From Cyclobacteriaceae bacterium (GTDB lineage: Bacteria > Bacteroidota > Bacteroidia > Cytophagales > Cyclobacteriaceae): a DNA stretch of 64,000 nt. The translations under genes were made by a program, and so were the position numbers. The notes beneath the pieces were generated by a model. The model did no database searches. It had not been told where the DNA came from and worked only from the letters and a program-made list of their open reading frames with translations. Shown piece after piece: positions 6,467 to 56,040 of the stretch; within the stretch, counting starts at the first letter, position 1, and the number at the start of each line of letters is the position of its first letter. The stretch spans positions 99,555-163,554 of the forward strand of contig JAGQYI010000076.1 of assembly GCA_020436165.1 (NCBI GenBank), read 5' to 3'.

Positions 6467-6472
6467 TTGCAA

Positions 6473-34317: not shown

Positions 34318-34333
34318 TGTGAAATGCATCACA
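34318..34333. promoter_or_regulatory. perfect CRP-type palindrome TGTGA-N6-TCACA
   Basis: tgtgaaatgcatcaca. About 70 bp upstream of rhodanese start in the rhodanese/patB divergent region. Confidence 0.55.
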
Positions 34334-34533: not shown

Positions 34534-35715
34534 ATGAGTGCCAAATTCGATAAGTATAAAAAAGAGATTGATCGTTCTACGTTTATCCGATACAGCGATA
34601 GTTATTTAAACTCCTTATTTGGTTCAACCAAAGTAGCTCCGCTTTGGGTAGCCGATTCCGATTTTATCGTAATGCCTGAATTGGTTAAAGCGATGAAAAA
34701 GGTAGCCAAACGTGGGCTGTATCCCTATGAGTTAAAAACACCTGCCATAAAACAACCTCTTATCGATTGGTTTACAAAACGTCATAAAATCAAACTTAAA
34801 ATGGATGGACTCCTGTTTACATCAAGCGTTCTTACCGGACTTGCCGCAGCAATTGATGAACTAACCTCAGAAGGAGATGGAATAATAATACAACCGCCTG
34901 TGTATAATGCCTTCAAAGGGTTAATAGAAGGCGTGGAAAGAAAGGTAGTGTTTAACCAACTTAAGCTGGTGGATGGTGCTTATGAAATGGATTTTGATGA
35001 TCTGAAAAAGAAAGCAGCTGAAAAAAAAACGAAAGCAATAATCCTTTGCAGCCCTCATAATCCAATCGGCAGGGTTTGGACCCGGAAAGAGCTTGAAAAA
35101 GTAGCCGAGATCTGCGTTGCCAATAATGTGCTCATGCTAACAGATGAAATACATTGCGATATCGTTTTCTCAAAAAGTAAGTTTGTTGGTATGACGGAAA
35201 TATATTCCGGTAAGTCTGATCAAATTATCATGTTTGGTTCAGCAGGAAAATCGTTCGGAATTCCGGGTTTGGTAGACTCGTTTATTTACACCCCAAATGA
35301 GGAATACAAAAAGGCCCTTCAAAGTAGAATTATGCGTTTCCACTTAGGCAAAAGCAATTCGTTTGGTATAGTAGCCATGAAAACCGTATACAAGCACGGA
35401 CACAAATGGCTGGACAAAAAACTGAGTTACCTTGAGAAAACCGTATTGATGATAGATGAATTCCTGAAAAAACACTTGCCAGAAGTTAAGTTGATTAAGC
35501 CTGAGGGCACCTATCAGGTGTGGCTTGATTTTAATGAGGTAGCAAAAAGTGATGAAGAATTGAGTGAATTACTCTTCAAAAAGGCCAAAGTGGGCATTGG
35601 CCTGGGCAGCATGTATAGCCCTAATGGCGAAGGTTTTGCCCGCATGAACATCGCCTCCCCTCAGCCGATGATTATGGATGCTTTGAAACAAATTGAGAAA
35701 GCTGTACATGTATAA
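34534..35715 (+). CDS. PLP-dependent C-S lyase (MalY/PatB-type cystathionine beta-lyase, aminotransferase class I/II)
   Basis: Collinear MalY/PatB-like sequence (…SPHNPIGRVW…, Lys in SAGKSFG). Start moved to MSAKFDKY (atg at 34534). Confidence 0.75.
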   Translation: MSAKFDKYKKEIDRSTFIRYSDSYLNSLFGSTKVAPLWVADSDFIVMPELVKAMKKVAKRGLYPYELKTPAIKQPLIDWFTKRHKIKLKMDGLLFTSSVLTGLAAAIDELTSEGDGIIIQPPVYNAFKGLIEGVERKVVFNQLKLVDGAYEMDFDDLKKKAAEKKTKAIILCSPHNPIGRVWTRKELEKVAEICVANNVLMLTDEIHCDIVFSKSKFVGMTEIYSGKSDQIIMFGSAGKSFGIPGLVDSFIYTPNEEYKKALQSRIMRFHLGKSNSFGIVAMKTVYKHGHKWLDKKLSYLEKTVLMIDEFLKKHLPEVKLIKPEGTYQVWLDFNEVAKSDEELSELLFKKAKVGIGLGSMYSPNGEGFARMNIASPQPMIMDALKQIEKAVHV

Positions 35716-37822: not shown

Positions 37823-37844
37823 TGCTGAATTAAGCGGTTCAGCA
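37823..37844. promoter_or_regulatory. 22-bp palindrome TGCTGAA-N8-TTCAGCA in cytochrome/psrA divergent promoter
   Basis: Perfect 7-bp inverted arms, about 75 bp upstream of Mo-oxidoreductase start. Confidence 0.4.
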
Positions 37845-37908
37845 ATTTTTTAATGGGTATGATTTACGCTCAAAAAAGAATCAAATTTTTAACTAATCGA
37901 TTATTCTC

Positions 37909-40149: not shown

Positions 40150-40679
40150 GATACGCAATGGCAATAGACACCTTAAAATGTGTCGGATGTAGCGACTGTG
40201 TTGTCGCATGTCAAACAGAAAATAATGTGCCGATAGGCTACTGTCGCGACTGGATCACTGAGACAGTAGATGGTACCTATCCGCAACTGGAAATAGAATT
40301 ACGATCAGAACGATGCAACCACTGCGAAACCGCTCCTTGCGTACGCTGCTGCCCTACAGGTGCCAGCCAGATTGTAGACGGAGGTATCGTTATCGTGGAA
40401 CACGATGAGTGCATCGGTTGTGGAGCATGTATAGAATCGTGCCCTTACGAAGCACGTTACACCCACCCGGAAGGCTATGTAGACAAGTGTACTTTCTGCT
40501 TACACAGAGTAAAAGAAGGTTTACAACCTGCGTGTGTGGCCGCATGCCCTACCAAGTGTATGTACTTTGGAGATATTGACGACCCTAACAGCGAAATATC
40601 TCACATGCTTAAGACAAGAAAACAGAAAACACTTGCACCTGAAGCAGGTACTAATCCTCATATTTTTTACTTAATCTGA
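40146..40679 (+). CDS. 4x[4Fe-4S] ferredoxin-type electron-transfer subunit (PsrB-like)
   Basis: Four Cys clusters (CxxCxxCxxxCP pattern). 4-bp overlap with upstream gene. Confidence 0.85.
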   Translation: MRYAMAIDTLKCVGCSDCVVACQTENNVPIGYCRDWITETVDGTYPQLEIELRSERCNHCETAPCVRCCPTGASQIVDGGIVIVEHDECIGCGACIESCPYEARYTHPEGYVDKCTFCLHRVKEGLQPACVAACPTKCMYFGDIDDPNSEISHMLKTRKQKTLAPEAGTNPHIFYLI

Positions 40680-40686
40680 TTGAATC

Positions 40687-41637
40687 ATGAAAGAAGAATT
40701 AATCATTAGTGGAAGAAACCTGCCTCATATAGACCCACACCTTAGTTTGTGGCACTGGCCAATCTCCCTCTATCTTTTCCTGGGTGGTCTGGCAGCAGGA
40801 ATTTTGTTCTTTGCAGCTTTGGTAACACTCTTCCGTAAAGAAGAAAAATACCTGGGAGCAGTAAAATACGCAACCATTATACCTCCTATCGCACTTTCGG
40901 TTGGTTTGCTCGCACTGTTGTACGACTTAACCCACCTTTGGTACGCATGGAGACTTTATATGGTTATCAGGATCGAGTCGCCTATGTCGTGGGGTGCCTG
41001 GACACTCCTTTTGGTAACTCCTATCTCCTTCTTATGGATGATCAGTTACTTTAAAGAGTACTTCCCTAACTGGAAATGGCAGCAAGGTGTATGGAATTAT
41101 GCCAGCATTGCAATTGATTTTATTAATAAATACAAACGTGTGATGGCGTGGATACTCGTTCCATCAACCATTATATTAGGCATTTACACCGGTATTTTGC
41201 TGTCAGCGTTCAATGCACGTCCGTTGTGGAACAACTCTATTTTAGGGCCCTTATTCCTTACTTCAGGATTGTCAACCGGGGCTGCTGCCATTATTGTGCT
41301 TTCCAAATCGCACGATGAACGCAGAATGTTTAGCATGATCGACCTTGTTTTAATAGGTATCGAATTGTTCCTAATCACCCATATGTTGATGGGTATGCTT
41401 GCAGGCTCACAGGTACAACTGGAGGCTTCCGAGCTTTTACTGGGAGGTGAATTTACCGTTGCGTTCTGGGTGTTTGTAATTATCCTGGGACTCGCATTCC
41501 CTGCCGTTCTCGAAATATTTGAACTGATTGGATATAAGGTTCCTGCCGTAATACCTGCTTTACTGGTATTGCTGGGTGGTATGATCTTCAGATTTATAAT
41601 GGTAGATGCAGGACAGATAACAAGGTATTTATATTGA
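40687..41637 (+). CDS. NrfD/PsrC-family polytopic membrane quinol-interacting anchor subunit
   Basis: 316 aa, ~8 TM. Follows the A and B subunits by 7 bp. Confidence 0.8.
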   Translation: MKEELIISGRNLPHIDPHLSLWHWPISLYLFLGGLAAGILFFAALVTLFRKEEKYLGAVKYATIIPPIALSVGLLALLYDLTHLWYAWRLYMVIRIESPMSWGAWTLLLVTPISFLWMISYFKEYFPNWKWQQGVWNYASIAIDFINKYKRVMAWILVPSTIILGIYTGILLSAFNARPLWNNSILGPLFLTSGLSTGAAAIIVLSKSHDERRMFSMIDLVLIGIELFLITHMLMGMLAGSQVQLEASELLLGGEFTVAFWVFVIILGLAFPAVLEIFELIGYKVPAVIPALLVLLGGMIFRFIMVDAGQITRYLY

Positions 41638-41663
41638 TTTTATAACAAGCTAAAGACAGAATT

Positions 41664-42197
41664 ATGAGCTTTTGGAAAGAAGATAAATCGCACGTGTATT
41701 GGAACCCCTACTTTGGTGGTTTCATGCTAGGCCTGCTGCTTATCCTTACCTTTTATATTACCGGTAGAGGTGTAGGAGCTACAGGAGGCACAAAAAGTGC
41801 AGTTATAACCACGGTTGAAACAATTTCGCCTGAATATGCCCAACGGTCAAAGTATTATTCCAAATACTATGACGAAGGCACCAACCCTATGAAAAACTGG
41901 CTGGTGTTCGAAACCATTGGTATTCTGGCAGGTGCTTTCCTTTCAGGAGCACTTGCTGGTCGTGCTAAGTTCAGGATCCAGCATCCTCCTCACATTACAT
42001 CCAACAAACGTTTGGTGTTTGCTTCTATCGGAGGTTTACTTTTCGGATTCGGATCACAGTTTGCAAGAGGCTGTACCAGCGGTGCAGCGCTTAGCGGAGC
42101 GGCAGTGCTCTCTCTTGGTGGGTTCATCACCATGATTGGTATTTTCGGCACTGCCTACCTGGCTGCTTATTTCTTTAGAAAACTGTGGATTAATTAA
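41664..42197 (+). CDS. YeeE/YedE family protein, half-size (N-terminal repeat type)
   Basis: 4-TM half transporter with conserved FARGCTSGAALSG motif. Confidence 0.75.
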   Translation: MSFWKEDKSHVYWNPYFGGFMLGLLLILTFYITGRGVGATGGTKSAVITTVETISPEYAQRSKYYSKYYDEGTNPMKNWLVFETIGILAGAFLSGALAGRAKFRIQHPPHITSNKRLVFASIGGLLFGFGSQFARGCTSGAALSGAAVLSLGGFITMIGIFGTAYLAAYFFRKLWIN

Positions 42198-42216
42198 CCT
42201 TAAGAATTAGAATACT

Positions 42217-42807
42217 ATGGGACCTCTTACATATTTTGGAGAAATTTCAACAGAGTGGAACTACGTGATAGCACTCTTTATAGGTATGGCTTTTGGCTAT
42301 ATCATGGAAGCCTCGGGCTTCTCATCATCGCGTAAGCTTATCGGAGTGTTTTACGGATACGACTTTGCCGTAATACGCGTATTCTTTACCGCCACCCTGG
42401 TAGCCATTATAGGGCTGCTTTACATGGGCTATTTCGGATGGATCGATTATTCCGTATTGTTTGTTCACCCAACCTTTGTGGCCTCGGCTGCTATTGGTGG
42501 TGTTATTATGGGGCTGGGCTTTATTATGGGTGGTTTCTGCCCGGGAACGAGCCTTTGTGCCGTAGCTATTGGCAAGCTGGACGGATGGGTATTTACCATT
42601 GCACTGTTTGTGGGAATCTTTCTTTACTCTCAGGTGTTTCCCTGGATAGAGCCCTTGTACAATGCAGGTGATATGGGACATATTAAAATAACCGAGTACT
42701 TTGGTATTTCACAGGGGTGGTTTGCCTTTGGTTTTGCCGTAGTAGCGGTAGCTGTCTTCTTTATCACCACATTGATAAGAAGAAAAGTAAAAGATGTTAG
42801 ATATTAA
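42217..42807 (+). CDS. YeeE/YedE family protein, half-size (second repeat)
   Basis: GGFCPGTSLCAVAIG motif. 19 bp after first half. Confidence 0.75.
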   Translation: MGPLTYFGEISTEWNYVIALFIGMAFGYIMEASGFSSSRKLIGVFYGYDFAVIRVFFTATLVAIIGLLYMGYFGWIDYSVLFVHPTFVASAAIGGVIMGLGFIMGGFCPGTSLCAVAIGKLDGWVFTIALFVGIFLYSQVFPWIEPLYNAGDMGHIKITEYFGISQGWFAFGFAVVAVAVFFITTLIRRKVKDVRY

Positions 42808-42818
42808 ATAACATAACT

Positions 42819-43436
42819 ATGTCAAAAAGATATATTTTTCTGGCCGTACTCTTAATAGGATCTGCATTTGGCCTCACGCAATTGCCCGAAAAGCCAAATA
42901 AAAAACAGATTCCACCCGATGAGCTGCTGATCAAAATCTATGATCAGGCCAGGTACCTTACCACACGTGAAATAGCCAAGCGAATTATCGATCGCGATCC
43001 AAGTATTTTCCTGGTGGATGTACGCACACCAAGCGAATACGAGGAGTACGCTATTCCGGGTGCTTTTAATATCCCGTTGGAAAACATTTTGGACGACCAA
43101 TGGAGAGATTATCTTAATCAGGATGGTGTAGATGTTATCTTCTATTCGAATGGAACCATCTATGCCGATCAGGCATGGGATCTCATCGCCCAGCGGGGAA
43201 TTAAGAACCTGTACATTATGAAAGGCGGACTTAACGAATGGTTTGCCACCATCATAAAACCGGTTGCTCCGGATGAAACCGCTCCTTCCGAAGCGTTTGA
43301 TCAGTATGCTTTTGAAAAAGCAGCTAGTATTTACTTTGGTGGTTCCTCCGCAGGAGTTGATGCTGCCGCACCTGCTGAAAAGAAAGAAGTAGTAGTACGT
43401 AAAAAGAAAAAGAAAGCAGCCGAAGGTGGTTGTTAA
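42819..43436 (+). CDS. membrane-anchored catalytically Cys-less rhodanese-like protein with C-terminal KKKKKAAEGGC tail (paralog 1)
   Basis: N-terminal signal/anchor. Rhodanese-like fold (…VDVRTPSEYEEYAIPGAFNIP…) with Ser in place of active Cys. Low-complexity linker. Sole Cys is the last residue. Confidence 0.65.
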   Translation: MSKRYIFLAVLLIGSAFGLTQLPEKPNKKQIPPDELLIKIYDQARYLTTREIAKRIIDRDPSIFLVDVRTPSEYEEYAIPGAFNIPLENILDDQWRDYLNQDGVDVIFYSNGTIYADQAWDLIAQRGIKNLYIMKGGLNEWFATIIKPVAPDETAPSEAFDQYAFEKAASIYFGGSSAGVDAAAPAEKKEVVVRKKKKKAAEGGC

Positions 43437-43458
43437 TTAATTACTTAAACAATTAATT

Positions 43459-44085
43459 ATGGAAGAGTTAAAGAGAACAAAACGGATAACCATAGGAGTA
43501 ATTGCTTTCATTGCGGTGTTAGTTATAGGTTTCTTAACAGTAAAAAAACCTGTGGCTGTTTACAAATTGAGCCCTCAGCAAATGAACGATGACCTCATTA
43601 TGGTGTACCAGGTTACCCCTGAAGAAGCCTCTGAAATGATGGGCGACTCGGTAAAAAATGTTTTTGTAGATATCAGAAGCATTTACGACTACGAAAAAGA
43701 CCACCTGTATGGTGCTGTAAATATCCCTATTCCTAATCTGTTGGATAAGGAGATTCAGGAACAGTTCGATCAGTGGAAAAAGGATTCGGTAACGGTAGTG
43801 CTGTATGGCAATGACCAGCTACAGGCCAATTCACCCTGGATGCTCATGTACCAATTGGGGTACGACAATACTCGAGTACTTTTAGGTGGCATAAAGTATT
43901 ACGATGACTTTATGAATGGCCGACTAGCCGAAAACGAAACTTTTGAAATGGAAAACCCTGCCTACGACTTTAAGAAAATTATTGCAGAAGGCAGTAGTGA
44001 TAATTCATCGGTTGCCGCACAGGCGCCACAAAAAGAGGTAGTCGTACGCAAAAAGAAGAAGAAGGCTGCCGAAGGAGGTTGTTAA
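43459..44085 (+). CDS. membrane-anchored Cys-less rhodanese-like protein with identical C-terminal tail (paralog 2)
   Basis: N-terminal TM anchor. Rhodanese-like domain (…VDIRSIYDYEKDHLYGAVNIP…). Sole Cys is the last residue. Confidence 0.65.
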   Translation: MEELKRTKRITIGVIAFIAVLVIGFLTVKKPVAVYKLSPQQMNDDLIMVYQVTPEEASEMMGDSVKNVFVDIRSIYDYEKDHLYGAVNIPIPNLLDKEIQEQFDQWKKDSVTVVLYGNDQLQANSPWMLMYQLGYDNTRVLLGGIKYYDDFMNGRLAENETFEMENPAYDFKKIIAEGSSDNSSVAAQAPQKEVVVRKKKKKAAEGGC

Positions 44086-44111
44086 CCTAACGTAACAATC
44101 TTGTTTGTTTA

Positions 44112-44143
44112 GGCTGTCTGCCCATCGGTGGATGGCCTTTTTT
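44112..44143 (+). terminator. Rho-independent terminator of the sulfur operon (copy 1 of duplicated element)
   Basis: ggctgtctgcccatcggtggatggcc plus tttttt. Confidence 0.6.
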
Positions 44144-44168
44144 ATGTCCATTAAATGAAATAAATGAT

Positions 44169-44227
44169 GGTCGTAGGGTCTCCCTGCGACCTAGCTAGAA
44201 ATGGTCTTAGCGAGACGCTCAGACCAG
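44169..44227. repeat. REP-like composite: hairpin GGTCGTAGGG-TCTC-CCTGCGACC followed by palindrome GGTCTTAGCGAGACGCTCAGACCAG
   Basis: Related copies at 841-899, 1075-1099, 44351-44430. Confidence 0.6.
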
Positions 44228-44232
44228 AAAAA

Positions 44233-44264
44233 GGCTGTCTGCCCATCGGTGGATGGCCTTTTTT
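44233..44264 (+). repeat. exact second copy of terminator element
   Basis: Identical 32-mer 121 bp downstream of copy 1. Confidence 0.6.
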
Positions 44265-44705
44265 GTTATTAACATTCAATTACTGTAGAGGCAGGGATCT
44301 GCTAAATTAGAAGGGATTCCCACTTGCGTGGGAATGACGTTGCTTTCACTGGTCGTAGGGTCTCCCTGCGACCAATTGTTTCAATATCTGGTCTCAGCCT
44401 GCCAGCCGCAGGCGGGCGAGATGCTAAACCTTGTCAGCCATTACTTCTTAAATCTACCCCAAAAACCACACAAATAAGAAGGAATAAATAGGAGTTTGCA
44501 CTTTTAGACTATTGTCTAAGCTCCCCGGCCACCGTGCCGGGGTCTCCTTCTAACCTTTTGTGCAGACCATTAGCTCTAAATGCGGGTTTAAGAGAGTGGA
44601 AAAGACACCCTCCGCTTGCTTCGCAACCACCTCCCTCAAGGGAGGATTTGTGGAGTGTCCCCTTGAGGGGGCTTTAAGGGGTGTTTCTACCCTGCATAAC
44701 AAAAA

Positions 44706-44811
44706 ACGCCCTTCGACTTTTCTACATCCCCCTAATCCCCCTTCAAAGGGGGACTTCATCTTTTGGTCAGAAGGAATGTCCCCTTGAGGGGACTTTAAGG
44801 GGGTGTTAAAA
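44706..44811 (+). repeat. ~105-bp GC-rich direct repeat, left copy flanking DUF559 gene
   Basis: Near-identical to 45203-45310. Contains hairpins cccccttcaaaggggg and ccccttgagggg. A third copy of the 32-bp core lies at 44655-44686. Confidence 0.7.
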
Positions 44812-44835
44812 GCTATTTCCGTAATTTAGCCATCT

Positions 44836-45147
44836 GTGAAAAACAAAATCATCCCATACCGTAAAGATTTAAAGGAAAAGGCCAGAGAATTAAGAAAACA
44901 CGGCACACTTGCAGAAGTTCTTCTATGGCAAGAAATTAAAGGCAAACAAATCAAAGGTTTCCAATTTCACAGGCAGGTTCCCATGCTGGATTACATTGTC
45001 GATTTCTATTGCCATGAACTTTCTCTCGTAATCGAAATTGATGGAGATAGCCATTATCACGATGATGCACCCATAAAAGATGCAATCAGGCAAAAACGGA
45101 TTGAATCGTATGGGTCAATTTTCTTCGATTTGATGATGTGGATGTAA
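44836..45147 (+). CDS. DUF559 endonuclease-domain protein (Vsr/restriction-endonuclease-like fold)
   Basis: …RQVPMLDYIVDFYCHELSLVIEIDGDSHY… characteristic DUF559 core. 103 aa. Confidence 0.7.
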   Translation: MKNKIIPYRKDLKEKARELRKHGTLAEVLLWQEIKGKQIKGFQFHRQVPMLDYIVDFYCHELSLVIEIDGDSHYHDDAPIKDAIRQKRIESYGSIFFDLMMWM

Positions 45148-45202
45148 AACAGAATATGGGGTATGTAATGTCTTCAATAATTGAGTGGATAGAGAATAGA
45201 TA

Positions 45203-45310
45203 GGACACCCTCGGCTTTTCTACATCCCCCTAATCCCCCTTCAAAAGGGGGACTTCATCTTTTGGTCAGAAGGAATGTCCCCTTGAGGGGACTTTAAGGG
45301 GGTGTTAAAC
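45203..45310 (+). repeat. ~105-bp GC-rich direct repeat, right copy
   Basis: See left copy. Confidence 0.7.
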
Positions 45311-47312: not shown

Positions 47313-47675
47313 TTATGAAACCACTAATAATTCCTTCTCAATTACGTCTTTCAACACATTTTTTGGAAGTGCACCAGCCTGCATTTTAGGAGTATCATTC
47401 AAAGGAATAAACAACATGCTAGGTATGCTACGGATTCCAAATACAGCCGAAAGCTCTTGCTCAGCTTCTGTATCCACCTTGAATATATCGATCTTACCAG
47501 CGTATTCCTCTGATAACTCTTCCAAAATAGGTGCTACCATTTTACAAGGTCCACACCAGTCTGCGTAAAAGTCGATTAAAGCAGGTTTGTCGCCTGCAAA
47601 TTCCCATTCGGTTTTTGTTGTATAATCAAAAACTTTTTTCTTAAAATCTTCAGTACTTAATAATGTCGTTGCCAT
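47313..47675 (-). CDS. thioredoxin
   Basis: 120 aa with WCGPCK active site. Confidence 0.9.
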   Translation of the reverse strand: MATTLLSTEDFKKKVFDYTTKTEWEFAGDKPALIDFYADWCGPCKMVAPILEELSEEYAGKIDIFKVDTEAEQELSAVFGIRSIPSMLFIPLNDTPKMQAGALPKNVLKDVIEKELLVVS

Positions 47676-47723: not shown

Positions 47724-47739
47724 TGTGATGTAAGTCACA
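47724..47739. promoter_or_regulatory. perfect CRP-type palindrome TGTGA-N6-TCACA in trx/sqr divergent promoter
   Basis: tgtgatgtaagtcaca, about 60 bp from both start codons. Confidence 0.55.
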
Positions 47740-47795
47740 TGGCTAAATCATTTTTTTTTGCGAGATTAGGAAATTCAACATTTAATCAATTTCTT

Positions 47796-49142
47796 ATGAG
47801 TAATAGCAAGCATCAAATAGTAATTATAGGTGGAGGAACAGGAGGTATTATGGCTGCTGCACAGTTGTTAAGAGCGCGAAAAGGTTTGGATGTAGCAGTA
47901 ATTGAACCCTCTGAGCAACATATGTATCAGCCCGCATGGACATTGGTAGGTGCCGGCCTGATGAAGAAATCGGCCACCATTAAACCTGAGAAAAAAGTAA
48001 TGCCCAAAGGGGCTACTTGGATAAAGGAATATGTGGAAACCATCAATCCCGATGAAAACGAAGTAGTGCTTCAAAACGGAGACAAGATAAACTACGAATA
48101 TCTTATTGCTGCTCCTGGCATTCAGATTAACCTGGATGGCATTGAGGGGCTTAAAGAAACCTTTGGTAAAAATGGAGTTTGCTCCAATTATGTGGATCCC
48201 GACTACACCTGGGAGGTGCTTCAAAACTTTAAAAGCGGAGTTGGTTTGTTCACGCAACCTGCCACTCCAATTAAATGCCCGGGGGCACCACAAAAAATAA
48301 TGTACCTGGCTGCAGATTACTTAAGAAGGAAGAAAAGGGAAAGTGATACGCAGCTTGTATTTGCCACTCCCGGTACCGTAATTTTTGGTACTGAGCCATT
48401 TAAATCAGAGCTTACCCACTACATAAACGATGTGTACAATATACCTCAACGCTATGGCTACAAGCTGGTAAAAGTTGACGGTGAAAAGAAAGAGGCACAT
48501 TATGAGCGCTTAGCGCTACCCGATGGCCGTACTGATTATGTAGTAAATGACGAACGTAACGCTGCAGGTTGTATTGGCTATGTATGGGATGGACAGGAAC
48601 AATACGTGGTAGAAGAGGAGAACAATCATATTGATGAATTGAAAGAGGGCACAAATTTCATTATCAAATTTGATATGCTGCACCTGGCACCGCCTCAATC
48701 AGCTCCCGGCTGGTTCCAGAAAACCAAACTGGCTAATCCGGATGGCCCTAACAAAGGCTGGATGGCAGTAGATGATGCTACACTTCAAAGTAGATTTTAC
48801 CCCAATGTATTTGGTATTGGCGATGTTACCGATCTTCCTACGGCAAGAACAGGTGCCGCTATTCGAAAGGAGGCACCAACTGTGGTTAAAAACCTGTTAA
48901 GCATAATGGATGGCAAGGCAGCCGATTATAAAGGTTACAATGGATATTCCTCTTGCCCTTTGGTAGTATCGCACAATAAAATGCTACTTGCCGAATTTAA
49001 ATATGGAAATGTTCGCAGCTCAGATCCATTGCTTTCTAAATTCTTTAATTTGGGCAAAGCCAGCTACCCTATGTGGTTGATGAAACGCTACGGACTTCCC
49101 AACCTTTACTGGCATGCCATGCTTAAAGGATATCAATTTTAG
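47796..49142 (+). CDS. sulfide:quinone oxidoreductase-like FAD-dependent pyridine nucleotide-disulfide oxidoreductase
   Basis: N-terminal GGGTGG FAD fold. Conserved Cys in …IKCPGAPQK… and …YSSCPLV…. Genomic context. Start moved to MSNSKHQIVIIGGG (atg at 47796). Confidence 0.7.
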   Translation: MSNSKHQIVIIGGGTGGIMAAAQLLRARKGLDVAVIEPSEQHMYQPAWTLVGAGLMKKSATIKPEKKVMPKGATWIKEYVETINPDENEVVLQNGDKINYEYLIAAPGIQINLDGIEGLKETFGKNGVCSNYVDPDYTWEVLQNFKSGVGLFTQPATPIKCPGAPQKIMYLAADYLRRKKRESDTQLVFATPGTVIFGTEPFKSELTHYINDVYNIPQRYGYKLVKVDGEKKEAHYERLALPDGRTDYVVNDERNAAGCIGYVWDGQEQYVVEEENNHIDELKEGTNFIIKFDMLHLAPPQSAPGWFQKTKLANPDGPNKGWMAVDDATLQSRFYPNVFGIGDVTDLPTARTGAAIRKEAPTVVKNLLSIMDGKAADYKGYNGYSSCPLVVSHNKMLLAEFKYGNVRSSDPLLSKFFNLGKASYPMWLMKRYGLPNLYWHAMLKGYQF

Positions 49143-49162
49143 AAAATAACTTTTTAGTCAGA

Positions 49163-49190
49163 AAGGCTTCTGAATTCAGAAGCCTTTTTT
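49163..49190 (+). terminator. Rho-independent terminator
   Basis: aaggcttctgaattcagaagcctt plus tttttt. Confidence 0.65.
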
Positions 49191-49266
49191 CTTAAAGACC
49201 GAAATGATTATTAAATTTCACTTTCATTTATGATTCTTGAAATCATGAAGGTTTTAATTTAGCACT

Positions 49267-49905
49267 ATGCGCGAACTGGTAGAGAAACACTTTCCTTTTT
49301 TCAAAGAACCCGAATTAGTGGATGCCATTGTAAATGTGGGAAAGGAAATAATTGTGAAAGAAGGTGAGCCTATTATTAAAATAGGTGAATTCATTAAAAG
49401 CACACCCCTTATCACAGAAGGGCTTTTAAAAGTAATTCGTCAGGACGAAAGCGGAAATGAAATTTTGCTCTACTACCTGGAAGGAGGCAATACTTGTGTA
49501 ATGACAGTTACGTGTTGTATGCACCAGGAAAAAAGTAAGATAAAGGCAATTGCCGAAAAAGACTCCCACCTTATTCTTATTCCCTTCCATTACATGGACG
49601 ATTGGATGCGTAATTTCCGAACCTGGAGAAACTTTATTCTCCAAACATATTCATCCCGTTTCGAAGAAATGCTTTCAACGCTGGATGCCACTGCTTTTGA
49701 AAGCCTTGACAACCGATTGATCAAATACCTGAACGATAAGCAAACGGTTATGGGCACCGATGAGTTCAGGGTCACGCATCAGCAAATTGCTTCAGAACTT
49801 AACTCCTCACGTGAGGCGGTAAGCCGGCTTTTGAAAAAACTGGAAATTCTTAAAGCCATTCAATTAGGAAGAAACAAAATAAAGATTCTAAAAGAACTGC
49901 ATTAA
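49267..49905 (+). CDS. Crp/Fnr-family transcriptional regulator (cNMP-binding-like sensor plus C-terminal HTH) with C-x5-CC cluster
   Basis: Beta-roll region with GGNTCVMTVTCC. HTH …IASELNSSREAVSRLLKKLE with CRP-like R-E-x-x-x-R recognition helix. Confidence 0.8.
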   Translation: MRELVEKHFPFFKEPELVDAIVNVGKEIIVKEGEPIIKIGEFIKSTPLITEGLLKVIRQDESGNEILLYYLEGGNTCVMTVTCCMHQEKSKIKAIAEKDSHLILIPFHYMDDWMRNFRTWRNFILQTYSSRFEEMLSTLDATAFESLDNRLIKYLNDKQTVMGTDEFRVTHQQIASELNSSREAVSRLLKKLEILKAIQLGRNKIKILKELH

Positions 49906-49910: not shown

Positions 49911-51086
49911 ATGCCAAAAACGTACAAAATATTGATAATAAGCCTATTATCACTGATGACAGTGTATGTAATAGGCACAAAGCTAGCTGCCTATTTTGTT
50001 GATAGCGGTTATAACAAAGTCGCCCAAAAACCACCTTACCGTACTACTGCCCAGGTACGAGCGCTTTACTACAACCTGCCGTTTGTGGCCGACCTGCACA
50101 GCGATGTTCTACTTTGGAACCGAAACATAGAAAAAAGGCATAAGTACGGCCATGAAGATATTCCGAGAATGATCGATGCCAACCTGGCGCTTCAGGCGTT
50201 TACCATCGTTAGTAAAACGCCCAAGAATATGAATTTCGATCACAACGATGATAAAACAGACAACATAACTGCCCTAATGTTTGCCACCGGAAGGCCTCCT
50301 TCCACCTGGTTTAGTTTGAAGGAAAGGGCTTTAGAACAATGTAGCGAACTATACCAGTATGCCCGTGTTTCTAAAGGAAGATTAAGGGTAATCACAAACC
50401 AATCTGAGCTGAAGCGATACATCAAAGACAGATCGGTAAACCCAAATCAAACCGCTGGTTTTCTGGGCGTAGAAGGCATGCAGGTGCTGGAGGGCGATAT
50501 TAACAATGTGCAGGCCATGTTCGATGCCGGAATTCGTATGATGGCACCCACACATTTTTTTGACAATAAGTTGGGAGGCTCGGCCCATGGAATCAACAAA
50601 GGAGGCCTCACCCCTTTTGGTGCAGAGGTGATAAAAAAAATGGAGAGCATGCACATGATCGTTGATCTGGCTCATGCCTCACCTGCACTCATAGATGATG
50701 TGCTGGACATAGCTACCCGGCCTCTTTTGGTCTCGCACACCGGTGTTAAGGGCACCTGTAACAACGTTAGAAATCTTTCAGATGAACACCTGAAAAGAAT
50801 TGCCGCAGGCGGAGGAATTGTTGGCATTGCAGTGTTTGAGCAAGCCGTTTGTGGAACGGATGCAGCTTCAACCGCACAGGCAATCAAGTACGCTTCGGAC
50901 CTTATTGGCTACGAGCATGTAGCGCTAGGCTCAGATTTTGATGGAGCCATACAAGCGCATTTTGATGTTACGGGTTTTCCGCTAATTGTTCAGGAATTGT
51001 TGAAGCTTGGCTTTAACGAAAAAGAAATTGCCGCCATTATGGGAGGCAATGTCCGAGATTTTTTGTTGAAGAATTTGCCGGAGTAA
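49911..51086 (+). CDS. membrane dipeptidase (peptidase M19 family)
   Basis: N-terminal anchor. DLHSD, VDLAH, SHTG, GSDFDG motifs. 6 bp after crp-family gene. Confidence 0.8.
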   Translation: MPKTYKILIISLLSLMTVYVIGTKLAAYFVDSGYNKVAQKPPYRTTAQVRALYYNLPFVADLHSDVLLWNRNIEKRHKYGHEDIPRMIDANLALQAFTIVSKTPKNMNFDHNDDKTDNITALMFATGRPPSTWFSLKERALEQCSELYQYARVSKGRLRVITNQSELKRYIKDRSVNPNQTAGFLGVEGMQVLEGDINNVQAMFDAGIRMMAPTHFFDNKLGGSAHGINKGGLTPFGAEVIKKMESMHMIVDLAHASPALIDDVLDIATRPLLVSHTGVKGTCNNVRNLSDEHLKRIAAGGGIVGIAVFEQAVCGTDAASTAQAIKYASDLIGYEHVALGSDFDGAIQAHFDVTGFPLIVQELLKLGFNEKEIAAIMGGNVRDFLLKNLPE

Positions 51087-51087: not shown

Positions 51088-51960
51088 CTATTTATGCCTT
51101 TTAAAGGGTTCAATATTTTGCCCTCCAAATCCTTGCGGATAGTTTTCAATATCTTCAAAACCTAACTTAATGTCGCGCCCTGAATGCGGTATGTGGGCTG
51201 TTTTGAAAATATAATCCCAAATACTCAACGTTATACCGTAATTAATACCGTATGGGTGGTCTTCCGGCAACTCTTTTGAATGATGCCAGATGTGCATAGC
51301 AGGATTATTCAGTAGATACTTAAAAGGCCCATATGTAATATTCAGGTTTGAGTGATTCAAATGACCAATCATTATATTAAAAGCATGCATTACAAACAAG
51401 TCATTAAGCCCAAACCCTATCATTGTTAATGGAACAAAAAGTGCTGTTTTGTAAAAAATATTTTCCATCCAATGGTATCGAAGATGCGCAGCAAACCCCA
51501 TTTCCTCTACCGAATGGTGTACTTTATGAAACTGCCACATCCAATCTACCCGATGTAGCATAACATGCACGCTCCATTGAATGAAATCGGAAAGAAGAAA
51601 AAGAATTAAAAAACGAGCCCAGATAGGCAAGCTATCCAATTCAATGGCTATAACGTTTTCAACTCCGAACAGACCTAAAAAATTGTTAAAAAGTTCTACC
51701 CCCACATTTGAAATGGCATTATAAGCGACCAAAGAGAATATGAAGAAGTTGAAGAACATGTAAAAAGCATCAAGCCAGAAATCCTTACGAAAGACCGCCT
51801 GGTTTTTTCGCCATGGAAAAGCCAATTCCAGTCCCCAAACAAGTAAGGAAAGCACAATAAGATAGTAAAAGTAATTGCCCCATCCCGGGTGCGTAATTTC
51901 ATATACCATGTAATTCCAATAGCCGGTATATGAGTCGTATATGGTTTTCCAAATGTCCAT
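51088..51960 (-). CDS. sterol desaturase/fatty-acid hydroxylase superfamily membrane protein
   Basis: Histidine boxes HRVDWMWQFHKVHH, HLRYHW, HIWHH. Confidence 0.8.
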   Translation of the reverse strand: MDIWKTIYDSYTGYWNYMVYEITHPGWGNYFYYLIVLSLLVWGLELAFPWRKNQAVFRKDFWLDAFYMFFNFFIFSLVAYNAISNVGVELFNNFLGLFGVENVIAIELDSLPIWARFLILFLLSDFIQWSVHVMLHRVDWMWQFHKVHHSVEEMGFAAHLRYHWMENIFYKTALFVPLTMIGFGLNDLFVMHAFNIMIGHLNHSNLNITYGPFKYLLNNPAMHIWHHSKELPEDHPYGINYGITLSIWDYIFKTAHIPHSGRDIKLGFEDIENYPQGFGGQNIEPFKRHK

Positions 51961-51966
51961 TCAGAA

Positions 51967-52188
51967 TTAAAATTTTATTTTTTTATCAGTTTTAGGAGGC
52001 TCAATTTCACAACTGTTACTACCGGGAGTAAAACCACAACCCGTATTAGCAATAGCCTGGTATAAAAGAATACCAGCAAAGAAAAGAACGAAATACTCTT
52101 TGTCCATAATAGCTGATACACCAAAATAAAGCCCTAAAAAAAGGCGAAGAAACCTTGCGAATCCCCACCCTTTCAAAATCGTTTCCAT
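51967..52188 (-). CDS. DUF2892 (YgaP C-terminal-like) small membrane protein
   Basis: 73 aa, two TM. Immediately downstream of rhodanese (2-bp gap), like the split form of E. coli YgaP. Confidence 0.5.
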   Translation of the reverse strand: METILKGWGFARFLRLFLGLYFGVSAIMDKEYFVLFFAGILLYQAIANTGCGFTPGSNSCEIEPPKTDKKIKF

Positions 52189-52189
52189 A

Positions 52190-52651
52190 TTATTTACCAG
52201 TTGGTAAGCCTTGTTGCCTCCAGGCGTTTATTCCACCTGCAAGGTTATAAACTTCTTTAAAACCCATGCTATTAAGCACTTGCATAGCGCTTCCGCTTCT
52301 TCCTCCAACAGCGCAATACACCATTACAGGAGCATTTTTATCAAGAGTCTTTAGCTGTTCTTTAAAATCCGGGGCGTAAAAATTCATATGTACACTGCCG
52401 ACTATTGCTCCCTGAGCTACCTCTTGAGGTGTTCTTACATCCAGTATAACACCATTCTTCTTGGTTTCTATTAATTGTTTAAACTCCGTAGTGTTAACAT
52501 TTTTTGCAATGCTTTCAGAAGACACCGTAGTTTTATTGGTAGCAGCCTGTGCAGATTTCTGATTTTGAGAATTTCCACACGATGCAAGCCCAAGTGATAA
52601 AGTGAGGGCTACGCCAAAAATCGCAATTCGTTTCATAGTAAAGTTGTTCAT
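52190..52651 (-). CDS. rhodanese-domain sulfurtransferase lipoprotein (active-site Cys present)
   Basis: Lipoprotein signal (LGLASCGN). CAVGGRSG active loop. Confidence 0.8.
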   Translation of the reverse strand: MNNFTMKRIAIFGVALTLSLGLASCGNSQNQKSAQAATNKTTVSSESIAKNVNTTEFKQLIETKKNGVILDVRTPQEVAQGAIVGSVHMNFYAPDFKEQLKTLDKNAPVMVYCAVGGRSGSAMQVLNSMGFKEVYNLAGGINAWRQQGLPTGK

Positions 52652-52707: not shown

Positions 52708-52723
52708 TGTGATAAAGAACACA
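52708..52723. promoter_or_regulatory. CRP-type palindrome with one mismatch (TGTGA-N6-ACACA)
   Basis: tgtgataaagaacaca in rhodanese/sulP divergent region. Confidence 0.4.
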
Positions 52724-52818: not shown

Positions 52819-54492
52819 ATGAAAAAATACCTTCCTATTTTAACCTGGTTGCCGGGCTATAAAAAAGAATTTCTTTCGGGTGATCTCTCAGCTGGCTTAA
52901 CGGTTGGGGTTATGCTCATACCCCAGGGCATGGCCTATGCCATGATAGCTGGCCTTCCTCCGGTTTATGGCCTTTATGCCGCTATGATTCCTCAAGTAGT
53001 TTATGCAATTTTTGGAACCTCCCGACAACTGGGCGTTGGTCCTGTTGCCATGGACTCGCTTCTTGTAGCTGCGGGCGTATCGGTAATTGCAGAAGCAGGA
53101 AGCGAAAACTATATTTCGCTTGCTATCCTGCTTGCCTTTATGATGGGCGTAATACAACTTTTGCTAGGCATCTTCAGGATGGGGTTTCTTGTCAATTTTT
53201 TATCAAAACCGGTAATCAGTGGATTTACTTCCGCAGCTGCTTTAATAATTGCCCTTAACCAACTAAAGCATCTGATTGGTGTAAATATTACCAGAAACAA
53301 CAACATATTCCTGATTCTTTACGATGCCATTTTGAAATTTAATCAATTTCACTGGCTTTCCATTCTCATAGGTATTGTTGGGATTATTATTCTCAAAAAC
53401 ATTAAAAAAATTCACAAAGCCATTCCGGGTGCTCTGGTGGCAGTTGTTTTAGGCATTCTCGCAGTAAAGTTCTTTAAGTTAGAGGGTTATGGAGTAAAAA
53501 TTGTTGGCGATGTTCCCAAAGGAATGCCTGACTTCGCCATACCCGCCATTCATTCCGAGCATTTCAACGATTTGATTCCCATCGCCCTAACTTTGGCACT
53601 CATTGCCTTTATGGAAGCCATATCCGTTGCAAAGGCATTGCAATCAAAACATAAAGACGAGTACAAACTAAATGCGAACCAGGAACTTATTGGTTTGGGT
53701 ATGGGAAATCTGGTAGGCTCATTCTTTAGTTGCTACCCAACAACAGGAGGTTTTAGTAGGTCAGCTGTAAACGAACAGACTGGTGCACGAACAAACCTTG
53801 CTGCCATTATTAGTGCTTCACTTGTAGCACTTACTCTTTTGTTTTTGACTCCTGTGTTTTACTTCTTGCCAAAATCTATTCTTGCCGCAATCATAATGGT
53901 GGCAGTATTTGGATTAATAGATCTAAAATTCCCAGTACTTCTATGGAAGACAAAAAAGGAAGACCTGGTAATGCTACTTATCGCTTTTGGTGTAACGCTT
54001 GGTTTTGGTATTAAAGAAGGCATTGGTGTAAGTGTGGTTATTTCACTGCTCGCCATGATCTATAGAAGTACTAAGCCACATTATGCGGTTCTGGGTAAAA
54101 TGCCTGATTCCAAGGAATACAGAAATATTGAACGCTTTCCCAACGTTGAAATCAGAGAGGATATTTTGGTTATCAGATACGATGCTGACCTTTATTTCGC
54201 CAATACCAACCATTTTGTGGAAACGCTAACGGAAGAAGTTGATAAAAAAGGAGATAAGCTTAAGCTTATAGTTTTGCATGGAGGCAGCATTGCCCATATG
54301 GACACCACAGCATACCAGGCACTCGCTGAATTTATTCAGTATGTTAAAAAAAGTGGAATTGAGGTCCATTTTGCTTATGTTATTGGCCCCACGAGAGACT
54401 TTTTAAGTAAAGCCGGGCTTAGAAATATTATAGGAGAAGACAAGTGCTTCTTAGATATTGAAAGTGCCATAAGTGCATACGATAAAAAATAA
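52819..54492 (+). CDS. SulP family anion permease with C-terminal STAS domain
   Basis: 557 aa. SulP TM core. STAS (…IVLHGGSIAHMDTTAYQAL…). Confidence 0.9.
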   Translation: MKKYLPILTWLPGYKKEFLSGDLSAGLTVGVMLIPQGMAYAMIAGLPPVYGLYAAMIPQVVYAIFGTSRQLGVGPVAMDSLLVAAGVSVIAEAGSENYISLAILLAFMMGVIQLLLGIFRMGFLVNFLSKPVISGFTSAAALIIALNQLKHLIGVNITRNNNIFLILYDAILKFNQFHWLSILIGIVGIIILKNIKKIHKAIPGALVAVVLGILAVKFFKLEGYGVKIVGDVPKGMPDFAIPAIHSEHFNDLIPIALTLALIAFMEAISVAKALQSKHKDEYKLNANQELIGLGMGNLVGSFFSCYPTTGGFSRSAVNEQTGARTNLAAIISASLVALTLLFLTPVFYFLPKSILAAIIMVAVFGLIDLKFPVLLWKTKKEDLVMLLIAFGVTLGFGIKEGIGVSVVISLLAMIYRSTKPHYAVLGKMPDSKEYRNIERFPNVEIREDILVIRYDADLYFANTNHFVETLTEEVDKKGDKLKLIVLHGGSIAHMDTTAYQALAEFIQYVKKSGIEVHFAYVIGPTRDFLSKAGLRNIIGEDKCFLDIESAISAYDKK

Positions 54493-54539: not shown

Positions 54540-54555
54540 TGTAATTTTAATCACA
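54540..54555. promoter_or_regulatory. CRP-type palindrome with one mismatch (TGTAA-N6-TCACA; extended TATGTAA-N6-TCACATA)
   Basis: About 77 bp upstream of persulfide dioxygenase fusion gene. Confidence 0.45.
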
Positions 54556-54624: not shown

Positions 54625-56040
54625 ATGCCAGTAGAACAGATATACACAGGCTGTTTAGCCGAAGCCGCTTACTACATACACTCTAATGGAGAAGCCGCTA
54701 TCATTGATCCATTGAGAGAGACTACCCCCTATGTTACCAGGGCTGCTGACGATGGAGTTAAAATAAAATACATTTTCCTTACCCACTTCCATGCAGACTT
54801 TGTGTCGGGTCACGTGGATCTTGCCAGAAAAACTGGAGCTACTATTGTTTACGGACCAAATGCCGTGGCAGAGTTCGATTTTCACCAGGCAAAAGACAAT
54901 GAAGAATTTAAAATTGGTGCTTTGACATTGAAAGTCCTTCATACTCCAGGCCATACCATGGAATCAACTACTTATCTGTTGATCGATGAAGAAGGGAAAA
55001 AACACAGTATTTATACAGGAGATACTTTGTTTATCGGTGATGTTGGACGCCCTGATCTTGCAGTTAAAACACATTTAACTCAAGAAGACCTTGCAGGTCA
55101 TCTGTATGATTCATTGAGAAACAAAATCATGACCTTGCCAGATGATGTAATTGTATATCCTGGTCATGGTGCAGGTTCTGCTTGTGGCAAAAACATGAGC
55201 AGCGAAACTTTCGACACCCTTGGTCATCAGAAAGAAACGAACTATGCACTTCGTGCAGACATGACAAAAGAGGAGTTCATCAAAGAAGTACTAACCGGAT
55301 TGGTTCAACCACCTCAGTACTTCCCTAAAAACGTGATGATGAACAAAGGAATAAACACCAGCTACTCTGATATTATTGCCCATGGTGTTCGCCCTCATCC
55401 GGCAGCTGAATTCAAGAACCTGATGGAAACAACAGAAGGAGTTATTGTGTTGGATACCCGTCATGAGCAAACATTCAAAGATGGTTTCATTCCTGGTTCG
55501 TACAACTTCAATATTGACGATAACTTCGCTCCTTGGGTAGGTGCTGTAATTGAAAACATTGAAGCTCCAATACTTATAGTTGCGGATGACGGACGCGAAG
55601 AAGAAGTTGTTACTCGTCTTGCACGTGTAGGGTACGATAACTCAATAGGATATCTTCAGGGTGGTATTGAAGCTTGGGAAGAGGCTGGTTATCCAATCGA
55701 TTCAATTGTTTCAATTACTCCTGACGAATTGAAAGTTAAAATGATGGGTAAAATCAACATTGTTGATGTTAGAAAGAAATCAGAATATGATTCTGAGCAT
55801 ATTGATTATGCAGGAGTTGTTAATAGACCCCTTGATTTCATCAACAAAAACATGAAAGAATACGATAAAAATCAAGAGTACTATTTCCACTGTGTGGGTG
55901 GATATCGTTCAATGATTGCAGCATCTATTCTTAAAGCTCATGGAATTAAAAATGTGATCGACATAAAAGGAGGTTTCAGAGACATCAAAGAAAGTGGTGT
56001 TAAAGTAACTGAATATGTTTGCCCTACTACATTATTATAA
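54625..56040 (+). CDS. persulfide dioxygenase (MBL-fold, ETHE1-like) fused to two rhodanese domains (CstB/Blh-like)
   Basis: HxHxDH (THFHADFVSGH), HTPGHT. First rhodanese lacks Cys. Second has CVGGYRS. Confidence 0.85.
   Translation: MPVEQIYTGCLAEAAYYIHSNGEAAIIDPLRETTPYVTRAADDGVKIKYIFLTHFHADFVSGHVDLARKTGATIVYGPNAVAEFDFHQAKDNEEFKIGALTLKVLHTPGHTMESTTYLLIDEEGKKHSIYTGDTLFIGDVGRPDLAVKTHLTQEDLAGHLYDSLRNKIMTLPDDVIVYPGHGAGSACGKNMSSETFDTLGHQKETNYALRADMTKEEFIKEVLTGLVQPPQYFPKNVMMNKGINTSYSDIIAHGVRPHPAAEFKNLMETTEGVIVLDTRHEQTFKDGFIPGSYNFNIDDNFAPWVGAVIENIEAPILIVADDGREEEVVTRLARVGYDNSIGYLQGGIEAWEEAGYPIDSIVSITPDELKVKMMGKINIVDVRKKSEYDSEHIDYAGVVNRPLDFINKNMKEYDKNQEYYFHCVGGYRSMIAASILKAHGIKNVIDIKGGFRDIKESGVKVTEYVCPTTLL

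Follow-up and report, generated by a model that had tools for sequence, protein, structure and literature searches.

A Crp/Fnr-family regulator with cysteines in its former cAMP pocket, a candidate sensor of sulfane sulfur in Bacteroidota

The dedicated bacterial sensors of persulfides and polysulfides are built on the CsoR fold (CstR), on the ArsR fold (SqrR, BigR and YgaV), or as a sigma-54 activator (FisR). Among Crp/Fnr regulators, FLP of Lactobacillus casei and CprK of Desulfitobacterium have activities that are set by the oxidation state of cysteines. In a review of August 2026, the primary sensors of reactive sulfur species (RSS) are confined to three families, CsoR, ArsR and Fis. Here we describe a Crp/Fnr-family regulator gene that lies next to a sulfide:quinone oxidoreductase (SQR) gene in a 64,000-nt stretch of Cyclobacteriaceae bacterium DNA (GCA_020436165.1, contig JAGQYI010000076.1, positions 99,555 to 163,554; hereafter the window). 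The encoded CRP-like protein, with cysteines in its former cAMP pocket, is a strong candidate for a sulfur-stress sensor of a kind not yet described. We put a probability of about 0.55 on the whole model, in which a Crp/Fnr activator of sulfide detoxification senses sulfane sulfur at these cysteines; that the protein regulates sulfur genes is, taken alone, highly probable. Our search, which left much subscription literature outside its reach, found no publication in which sqr, pdo or the sensing of persulfide is connected with a Crp/Fnr regulator, and the nearest item was a CRP-like motif upstream of psrABC in Chlorobaculum to which no regulator was assigned.

The original prediction had read this open reading frame (ORF) as a Crp/Fnr regulator with a C-x5-CC cysteine cluster, and both the family and the cysteines (C77, C83 and C84) were borne out. 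Three Pfam domains score above their cut-offs in the product (bits/cut-off): HTH_Crp_2 (PF13545, 39.3/27), cNMP_binding (PF00027, 30.0/27.5) and Crp (PF00325, 24.9/21). Judged by its sequence, the cNMP-binding domain is divergent. An AlphaFold2 (AF2) model computed with 144 aligned relatives has a mean predicted local distance difference test (pLDDT) score of 93.5 and shows the canonical beta-roll (residues 26-106, with a helix at 78-86), long C-helix (118-144) and winged helix-turn-helix (HTH, 171-194). Foldseek matched the model first to PDB 3dv8 (TM-score 0.84) and next to FNR, CRP, GlxR and NtcA, with TM-scores to CRP, FNR and 3dv8 of 0.7-0.84; a family profile matched 3dv8 at E 7.5e-44 and CRP at E 1.9e-22. 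By Pfam, AF2 and Foldseek the protein has the N-terminal beta-roll domain, dimerisation C-helix and C-terminal winged HTH of the Crp/Fnr superfamily, and its Pfam domains and fold match include no CsoR four-helix bundle, ArsR winged HTH or sigma-54 AAA+ architecture. An identical protein on record, from a Cyclobacteriaceae metagenome-assembled genome, is annotated merely as 'Crp/Fnr family transcriptional regulator'.

The pocket has lost the residues that hold cAMP, in keeping with the earlier suggestion that it might no longer serve a nucleotide. An hhalign alignment with Escherichia coli CRP pairs C77, V78, M79, C83, C84, K89 and S90 with I70, G71, E72, F76, E77, R82 and S83 of the phosphate-binding cassette, and the ungapped register of the C-helix pairs R131, M135 and L136 with R123, T127 and S128. 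The cAMP contacts are thus substituted at E72 (M79), R82 (K89, with K or Q across the family), T127 (M135) and S128 (L136), so that the ribose, phosphate and adenine contacts are gone; S83 (S90) and R123 (R131) alone are retained. The score against the NCBIfam CRP equivalog NF008732 is 35.5 bits for a cut-off of 266, that against Fnr (NF008365) is 27.7 bits for a cut-off of 228, and the NtcA score is likewise far under its cut-off. We therefore reject a cAMP receptor on the four replaced contacts and the equivalog score. The protein has three cysteines in all, each within GGNTCVMTVTCC and so in the sensor domain and not at an FNR-like N-terminus, as had been predicted; with every cysteine inside residues 77-84, an FNR-type N-terminal Fe-S cluster is rejected as well.

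Conservation was assessed in three samples. All three cysteines are invariant in 120/120 of the nearest homologues (52-100% identity). Among 151 representatives of 50%-identity clusters, which are 33-47% identical to the regulator, C77 is kept in 146, and the patterns at positions 77/83/84 (a dash marks the absence of cysteine) are CCC in 55, CC- in 23, C-C in 27, C-- in 41 and none in 4; C83 and/or C84 occur in 106/151, and the two vary independently. The third sample consisted of 80 metagenome loci that were picked by the recognition-helix pattern only and thus form an unbiased set, with C77 in 80/80, C83 in 70/80 and C84 in 46/80. A further 80 genome loci were found with scan patterns that included the Cys motif and are not independent evidence for its conservation. 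On these alignments the Cys motif is not due to chance, and the conserved unit is C77, usually with C83, the 'CC' being a trait of particular clades. The expectation that the cluster would be conserved in orthologues next to sqr or pdo therefore held for C77, which is universal there, and for C83, which is common, and failed for C84, which is dispensable: relatives with C77 and C83 only, or with C77 only, adjoin the same sulfur genes, so that 'C-x5-CC cluster' over-describes what is conserved. The only other near-invariant residues of the sensor domain across the family are Y69, G74, S90, P106, W120 and R131.

Relatives of the regulator are encoded in at least 597 genome stretches, and their carriers include Cyclobacteriaceae, other Cytophagales, Saprospiraceae, Flavobacterium, Aequorivita, Reichenbachiella and Fulvivirga. 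Genes in the fetched loci (labelled Lnnn) were called by a crude longest-ORF heuristic, and neighbours were annotated by blast and phmmer with the window proteins and by Pfam on cluster representatives. The same neighbours recur in both 80-locus sets: TauE, a CstB-like persulfide dioxygenase-rhodanese fusion (PDO-Rhd), SQR, rhodaneses, SulP, YeeE and thioredoxin (Trx). A core sulfur gene lies within 6 kb in 53/80 genome loci (37/51 where at least 3 kb is present on each side). Sulfur-gene neighbours were found in 62/80 metagenome loci and, where the downstream DNA extends to 2.5 kb or more, in 47/50; by Cys pattern the latter figure divides into 26/29 CCC, 17/17 CC- and 4/4 C--. The order of genes differs between groups, with the regulator written as CRP: (SQR>) CRP> TauE> PDO-Rhd> in Flavobacterium, CRP> c-type cytochrome/Tll0287-like> TPMT methyltransferase> followed at a distance by PDO-Rhd and SQR in Aequorivita, and Trx< SQR> CRP> ... 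Rhd< SulP> PDO-Rhd> in Cytophagales. C77+C83 members likewise adjoin sulfur genes, and members with C77 only or with C77 and C84 are followed by rhodanese, thioredoxin and DUF983 genes, by YeeE halves, or by a YgaP-like transmembrane (TM) peptide. All four Cys-less representatives are without sulfur neighbours and adjoin HTTM/DUF1800, P-type ATPase or MOSC genes; the sample is small and the direction is clear, loss of the cysteines accompanying loss of the sulfur context. The regulator is almost certainly dedicated to a local sulfide/persulfide-detoxification regulon, which it probably activates and which matches those of CstR, SqrR and FisR.

The operators tie the regulon to this protein. As the original prediction had it, the recognition helix is CRP-like (R182-E183-x-x-S-R187 in the alignment), and TGTGA boxes stand ahead of sulfur genes. 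A position weight matrix (PWM) derived from orthologous boxes was applied to the full window, and its top four matches, at 47724, 34318, 54540 and 52708, are all intergenic, ahead of sulfur genes, and perfect or one mismatch from TGTGA-N6-TCACA. Matches ranked below these four score lower, and those that were placed on the ORF map are intragenic. Orthologues of the 47724 box are present in four loci and of the 52708 box in two; the arrangement of rhodanese gene, box and lyase gene at 34318 recurs in L001 and L007, and boxes stand ahead of PDO-Rhd genes in many loci. The operators that turned up across the family are TGTGA-N6-TCACA or TGTAAC-N4-GTTACA, not the FNR-type TTGAT-N4-ATCAA, and the window's regulator combines the R-E-x-x-x-R helix with the TGTGA-N6-TCACA operator, as CRP proper does.

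We found that residue 183 co-varies with the operator: S-R-E proteins go with TGTGA-N6-TCACA and S-R-V proteins with TGTAAC-N4-GTTACA. When the residue-183 type was tabulated against the type of intergenic box (E/TGTGA, V/TGTAA), the genome loci gave 26:3 versus 11:74 (Fisher p 6e-14), and the metagenome set replicated this with 40:4 versus 6:68 (p 2e-20). In CRP, E181 reads the G:C pair of the operator. The position altered between TGTGA and TGTAA is this same G:C pair, which ties the boxes to the regulator and not to another Crp paralogue. Genes with boxes ahead of them are those for SQR, PDO-Rhd, TauE (often the crp-tauE operon itself), SulP (six loci), rhodaneses, YeeE and cydA. An ordinary cAMP-responsive CRP that lies near sulfur genes by accident would share the CRP-like helix and the TGTGA-N6-TCACA boxes; with just four sites in the window, each ahead of sulfur genes, and a linkage to sulfur genes that is conserved across families, we regard it as extremely improbable.

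The boxes also stand in a fixed relation to the promoter. Sigma-A promoters of Bacteroidota consist of a -33 element, TTTG, and a -7 element, TAnnTTTG. Across loci, a -7-like TAnnTTTG begins 20-22 nt past the box in 78 cases and at any other offset in 8 cases at most. The window's own boxes obey the same spacing, with TTCCTTTG 20 nt past the 47724 box on the trx side, TTTTTTTG 21 nt off the 34318 box on the rhodanese side, TAAACTTG 21 nt downstream of the 54540 box, and -7-like elements at 21 nt on either side of the 52708 box. Set against the known Bacteroidota promoter, this spacing suggests that the box takes the place of the -33 element, with its centre close to -42. The operator of a class-II CRP/FNR activator lies at about -41.5, and by analogy with such promoters the regulator would occupy the class-II activator position.

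Taken together, the fixed pocket cysteine, the frequent second cysteine six or seven residues on in the cassette helix, and the Cys-less relatives found away from sulfur genes point to cysteine chemistry as the sensing principle, and S-sulfuration of C77, with or without a polysulfide bridge to C83 or C84, is the most likely signal input, in line with the persulfidation or polysulfide bridging that the original prediction had suggested. In what follows we infer that the effect is activation, what the signal is and how the thiols react. Sulfide would be oxidised by SQR to persulfide or polysulfide, which would be the signal read in the former cAMP pocket. Sulfane sulfur would S-sulfurate C77, and in most members this residue would then be bridged by polysulfide to C83 or C84, which lie on the short helix next to it. 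Taking the role of cAMP, this covalent change would order the cassette and the long C-helix and free the DNA-binding domains. The homodimeric activator would then bind its TGTGA-N6-TCACA boxes, whose centres would lie about 42 bp before the transcription start, in place of the -33 element, and would switch on trx/sqr, the CstB-like PDO-Rhd, rhodaneses and the SulP transporter. Elsewhere in the Bacteroidota the same family would switch on TauE, YeeE and cytochrome bd oxidase. Thioredoxin from the regulon would reset the switch.

The better AF2 model allows a prediction about the form of the bridge. C77 caps the helix at 78-86, within which C83 and C84 both lie, and from helix position the i to i+6/7 geometry would set them about 9-10.5 A from C77. 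At that spacing a plain disulfide would be disfavoured without unwinding, and a tri-, tetra- or penta-sulfide could span the gap. SqrR senses persulfide through a Cys-Cys tetrasulfide, and it is selective because its disulfide form is structurally frustrated; by analogy we propose that the same logic may apply to the regulator. The predicted geometry bears on whether the protein is instead a general switch for thiol oxidation or disulfide stress (reactive oxygen species, diamide-type stress or O2), similar to Lactobacillus FLP or CprK and not specific to sulfane sulfur. Redox-active Cys pairs are established in both of those Crp/Fnr proteins, and thioredoxin and peroxiredoxin genes occur in several regulons. 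The modelled helix would nevertheless disfavour a simple disulfide, and the conserved targets are sulfide-specific (SQR, CstB-like PDO-Rhd, TauE, YeeE, rhodaneses and cytochrome bd), not catalase, AhpC or OxyR-type genes; we hold such a general switch to be improbable.

Several observations weigh against sulfane-sulfur sensing at the pocket cysteines. C77-only members make up 41/151 representatives and 9/80 metagenome loci, and because they exist an intramolecular bridge cannot be the family-wide mechanism. About one third of the genome loci, mainly of Saprospiraceae (ArsR> DUF983> CRP>), have no recognised sulfur gene within 6 kb. In the window no box lies 5' of the regulator gene, and relatives do have a box of their own. 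An AF2 model from a shallower alignment reached a mean pLDDT of 88.1, with residues 81-85 below 50. Lastly, a single conserved pocket cysteine is equally the expected look of a haem-thiolate or metal ligand.

This last point belongs to an explanation that keeps the same sulfur regulator and makes the pocket cysteines ligands of a cofactor (Fe-S cluster, haem bound by the C77 thiolate, or thiophilic metal) that reacts with sulfide, O2 or NO. That C77 is the sole near-universal pocket cysteine is the pattern of an axial or metal ligand; both FNR (Fe-S) and CooA (haem) are among the fold and profile matches; Met, Cys and hydrophobic residues abound in the pocket; and the Cys segment was modelled poorly from the shallow alignment, which is often so for apo cofactor sites. 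With the deeper alignment, however, the Cys segment became a confident helix without a cofactor. No His, Asp or further Cys that could serve as a fourth ligand is co-conserved with the cysteines in the 151 representatives, and C83 and C84 are individually gained and lost, unlike a cluster-binding triad. We consider a cofactor unlikely. The C77/C83/C84 Fe-S triad in particular was set aside as unlikely, since the three cysteines are not co-inherited and a fourth conserved ligand is absent.

Another explanation keeps the same regulator and gives it a non-covalent effector. Glutathione binds PrfA and 2-oxoglutarate binds NtcA, and most characterised Crp/Fnr members use reversible ligands. The remodelled pocket might accordingly bind thiosulfate, sulfite or a low-molecular-weight thiol persulfide non-covalently, with the cysteines just lining the site, and the retained, nearly invariant S90 (CRP S83) and R131 (CRP R123) would suit a sulfur oxyanion. 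This leaves unexplained why position 77 is Cys, and not any small residue, in 97% of representatives, and why the four Cys-less relatives have departed from the sulfur context. We rate a non-covalent effector about as unlikely as a cofactor, and return to sulfuration of C77 as the preferred account.

Some further gene associations of the family were recorded. The cytochrome bd oxidase gene cydA is a box target or neighbour in seven loci (of Saprospiraceae type and some from metagenomes; in L025 at 12428). Cytochrome bd is the sulfide-insensitive terminal oxidase, and cydA as a target fits a sulfide response. In seven Aequorivita loci, TGTAAC-N4-GTTACA boxes stand ahead of a c-type cytochrome gene, whose 342-aa product has a Tll0287-like domain. 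Genes for a TPMT-type methyltransferase and an ICMT-like membrane protein come next, and all three are uncharacterised as sulfur-stress genes. In seven loci of Saprospiraceae and others, a small ArsR-family gene and a gene for a DUF983 membrane protein precede the regulator. The ArsR-family protein has a Cys-rich C-terminus (CLENCQCNM) and may act beside the Crp/Fnr protein as a second regulator based on thiols.

The coordinates of the features in the window are collected in Table 1. Within 8 kb of the regulator gene lie genes for thioredoxin, two rhodaneses, SulP and the CstB-like PDO. The gene was correctly placed downstream of an SQR-like gene by the original prediction: the two are 124 nt apart, the SQR is a human SQOR-like type II enzyme, and between them lies a hairpin that RNA folding revealed and a generic terminator scan did not flag. 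The mechanical SQR ORF opens at 47739, inside the operator box. Orthologues (e.g. L001) start at MSN(S/I)KHQ, which corresponds to 47796, so that the first 19 codons of the mechanical ORF (47739-47795) are probably untranslated. On its other side the regulator gene is probably co-transcribed with an M19 dipeptidase gene. M19 enzymes cleave Cys-Gly-type dipeptides, and this neighbour hints at a link to low-molecular-weight thiol turnover. The order of the three genes read from the 52708 box, fatty-acid-hydroxylase-family (<), 73-aa membrane protein (<) and rhodanese (<), is conserved in four loci, and the PDO-Rhd matches PDB 3tp9 at E 1e-62 and the Staphylococcus aureus structure 3r2u at E 7e-57.

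Table 1. Features of the window: the regulator gene and its parts, predicted operators, and sulfur-related genes. Positions are those of the 64,000-nt window.
Feature	Position	Strand	Evidence and remarks
Crp/Fnr-family regulator gene	49267..49905	+	ATG start, 212 aa; Pfam cNMP_binding, HTH_Crp_2 and Crp; AF2 CRP/FNR fold
Cys segment GGNTCVMTVTCC, codons G73-C84	49483..49518	+	Aligned with the cAMP phosphate-binding cassette of CRP
Recognition helix R182-E183-A-V-S186-R187-L-L-K190	49810..49836	+	Aligned with CRP R180-E181-x-x-x-R185
Operator TGTGATGTAAGTCACA, between divergent trx and sqr	47724..47739	.	Perfect match; PWM 18.9, best in window
Operator TGTGAAATGCATCACA, between small rhodanese gene (-) and PatB-type C-S lyase gene (+)	34318..34333	.	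Perfect match; PWM 17.7
Operator TGTAATTTTAATCACA, 5' of PDO-rhodanese gene	54540..54555	.	One mismatch; PWM 17.3
Operator TGTGATAAAGAACACA, between divergent rhodanese operon and sulP	52708..52723	.	One mismatch; PWM 12.7, rank 4 in window
Thioredoxin gene, predicted regulon member	47313..47675	-	TIGR01068 105.8 bits (cut-off 96.8); 47724 box in common with sqr
Type II (human SQOR-like) sulfide:quinone oxidoreductase	47796..49142	+	PDB 6oi5 E 2e-92; box 47724
Terminator-like hairpin and U-run between sqr and regulator gene	49160..49196	+	-20.7 kcal/mol, z -4.5; 0/200 shuffles as stable
M19 membrane dipeptidase gene, 5 nt past regulator gene	49911..51086	+	Pfam Peptidase_M19 E 6e-64; order kept in Cyclobacteriaceae (L001-L006)
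Unit read from the 52708 box	51088..52651	-	Rhodanese lipoprotein 52190-52651; 73-aa membrane protein 51967-52188; fatty-acid-hydroxylase-family 51088-51960; Pfam
SulP-family anion transporter with STAS domain	52819..54492	+	TIGR00815 512.6 bits, above cut-off
CstB-like persulfide dioxygenase (metallo-beta-lactamase fold) fused to two rhodanese domains	54625..56040	+	Pfam Lactamase_B and 2x Rhodanese
Single-domain rhodanese, 95 aa, CCASGNRS loop	33968..34255	-	ORF list; 71 nt from centre of 34318 box
PatB-family C-S lyase	34534..35715	+	TIGR04350 357.5 bits (cut-off 340); likely start MSAKFD

The gene for the 95-aa rhodanese is shorter than usual ORF length thresholds; as a phmmer query (Rhd95) the protein matches neighbours of many family members. 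The PatB-family C-S lyase across the 34318 box is a possible regulon member, and its mechanical ORF (start 34390) is about 48 codons overlong. A second sulfur cluster occupies 35779-44085 and encodes an ExtM-like multihaem cytochrome (-), a PhsA/PsrABC-like molybdopterin oxidoreductase, a YeeE/TsuA-like transporter split in two genes, and two membrane-anchored rhodaneses. The window PWM scan gave no regulator box above background 5' of this Psr/Phs-like cluster. The adjoining 44100-45310 is a repeat-rich intergenic stretch that looks like small insertion or REP-like elements: a DUF559 endonuclease-like gene (44836-45147) lies between 83-nt direct repeats (44728-44810 and 45227-45309, 92% identical), and hairpin-like elements are duplicated (44111-44143 equals 44232-44264; 44168-44191 equals 44350-44373). 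Rfam and tRNA scans across the window gave no matches.

The closest solved relative, 3dv8, is an uncharacterised Crp/Fnr regulator of Eubacterium rectale from structural genomics. Like the regulator it retains the equivalents of C77 and C83 (C-x5-C); its position 84 is Ile, the identity between the two proteins is about 26%, and E. rectale belongs to another phylum. Relatives of 3dv8 in gut Clostridia are extremely numerous, with 25,610 sequences in one cluster and 3,778 in another; they keep C-x5-C and are 86-98% identical across genera. The extension to Firmicutes rests on a single gene context in four contigs (L093-L096), where the 3dv8-type gene (6001-6660) neighbours an operon (6711-9591, minus strand) for thioredoxin, a Pyr_redox_2/Pyr_redox_dim/Rhodanese fusion that is CoA-disulfide-reductase- or CoA-persulfide-reductase-like, ferredoxin and a 191-aa protein. 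Upstream of trx in these contigs, GGTGATAACATCACA follows TTGACA; this candidate operator, a GTGA-N5-TCAC palindrome, overlaps a sigma-70-type promoter.

Bacteroidota are a dominant phylum of sediments, oceans and guts, where sulfide is abundant, and to our knowledge none of the CsoR, ArsR and Fis RSS sensors accounts for them. If the model is true, a Crp/Fnr-type sensor would fill this gap, with a compact, predictable regulon and an operator governed by a helix-to-base code (E183 with G, V183 with A). It would also be a new re-use of the cyclic-nucleotide pocket, in which a covalent sulfur adduct replaces the nucleotide. The abundant gut-Clostridia relatives and the 3dv8 crystal structure would make the idea directly testable and would connect it with how sulfide is handled in the human gut. 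The predicted regulon would in turn nominate sulfur-trafficking partners, among them DUF983, YgaP-like TM peptides, the Tll0287-like cytochrome and TPMT-type methyltransferases.

With E. coli CRP the regulator shares the beta-roll, long C-helix and winged HTH, the R-E-x-x-x-R helix, the 16-bp TGTGA-N6-TCACA operator and an operator position equivalent to that at class-II promoters (about -41.5). It differs in lacking the cAMP contacts, in carrying cysteines in the phosphate-binding cassette, and in a regulon that is small and local where that of CRP is global. FNR has the fold and the E-x-x-S-R element of the helix (REAVSR) in common with it and, if our proposal is right, Cys-dependent sensing; the regulator lacks the N-terminal C-x2-C-x5-C and the central Cys of FNR, and R182 points to CRP-type and not TTGAT-type specificity. 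The Cys sites of FLP and CprK lie elsewhere (at the N-terminus and the junction of beta-roll and C-helix, or at the N-terminus and in the DNA-binding domain), form plain disulfides and are unlinked to sulfide-oxidation genes.

The persulfide sensors CstR, SqrR/BigR/YgaV and FisR have a target set in common with the regulator (sqr, pdo/cstB, rhodanese, tauE, yeeE and ygaP-like genes); their genes, too, are embedded in the cluster, and they have conserved cysteines able to form a polysulfide bridge, an ability that the regulator's cysteines would share. As expected of this class, its operators and its gene are placed at sqr/pdo/rhodanese/tauE-type genes and its cysteine is conserved. Its fold is unrelated to that of CstR, SqrR or FisR, and its cysteines are found in what was once a nucleotide pocket. 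CstR and SqrR act as repressors until modification releases them, and the regulator is instead predicted to activate from about -42; FisR activates with sigma-54, and the regulator is predicted to do so with sigma-A. The odds are, we think, slightly below even that it represents a fourth structural class of dedicated persulfide/polysulfide sensor, a Crp/Fnr-fold activator with covalent sulfuration or bridging of pocket cysteines as effector, Bacteroidota-wide and probably in gut Clostridia too. The protein is CRP-like at the DNA and SqrR/CstR-like at the signal and a member of neither group; as a Crp/Fnr regulator it would combine a sensory module and a physiological role that are both new.

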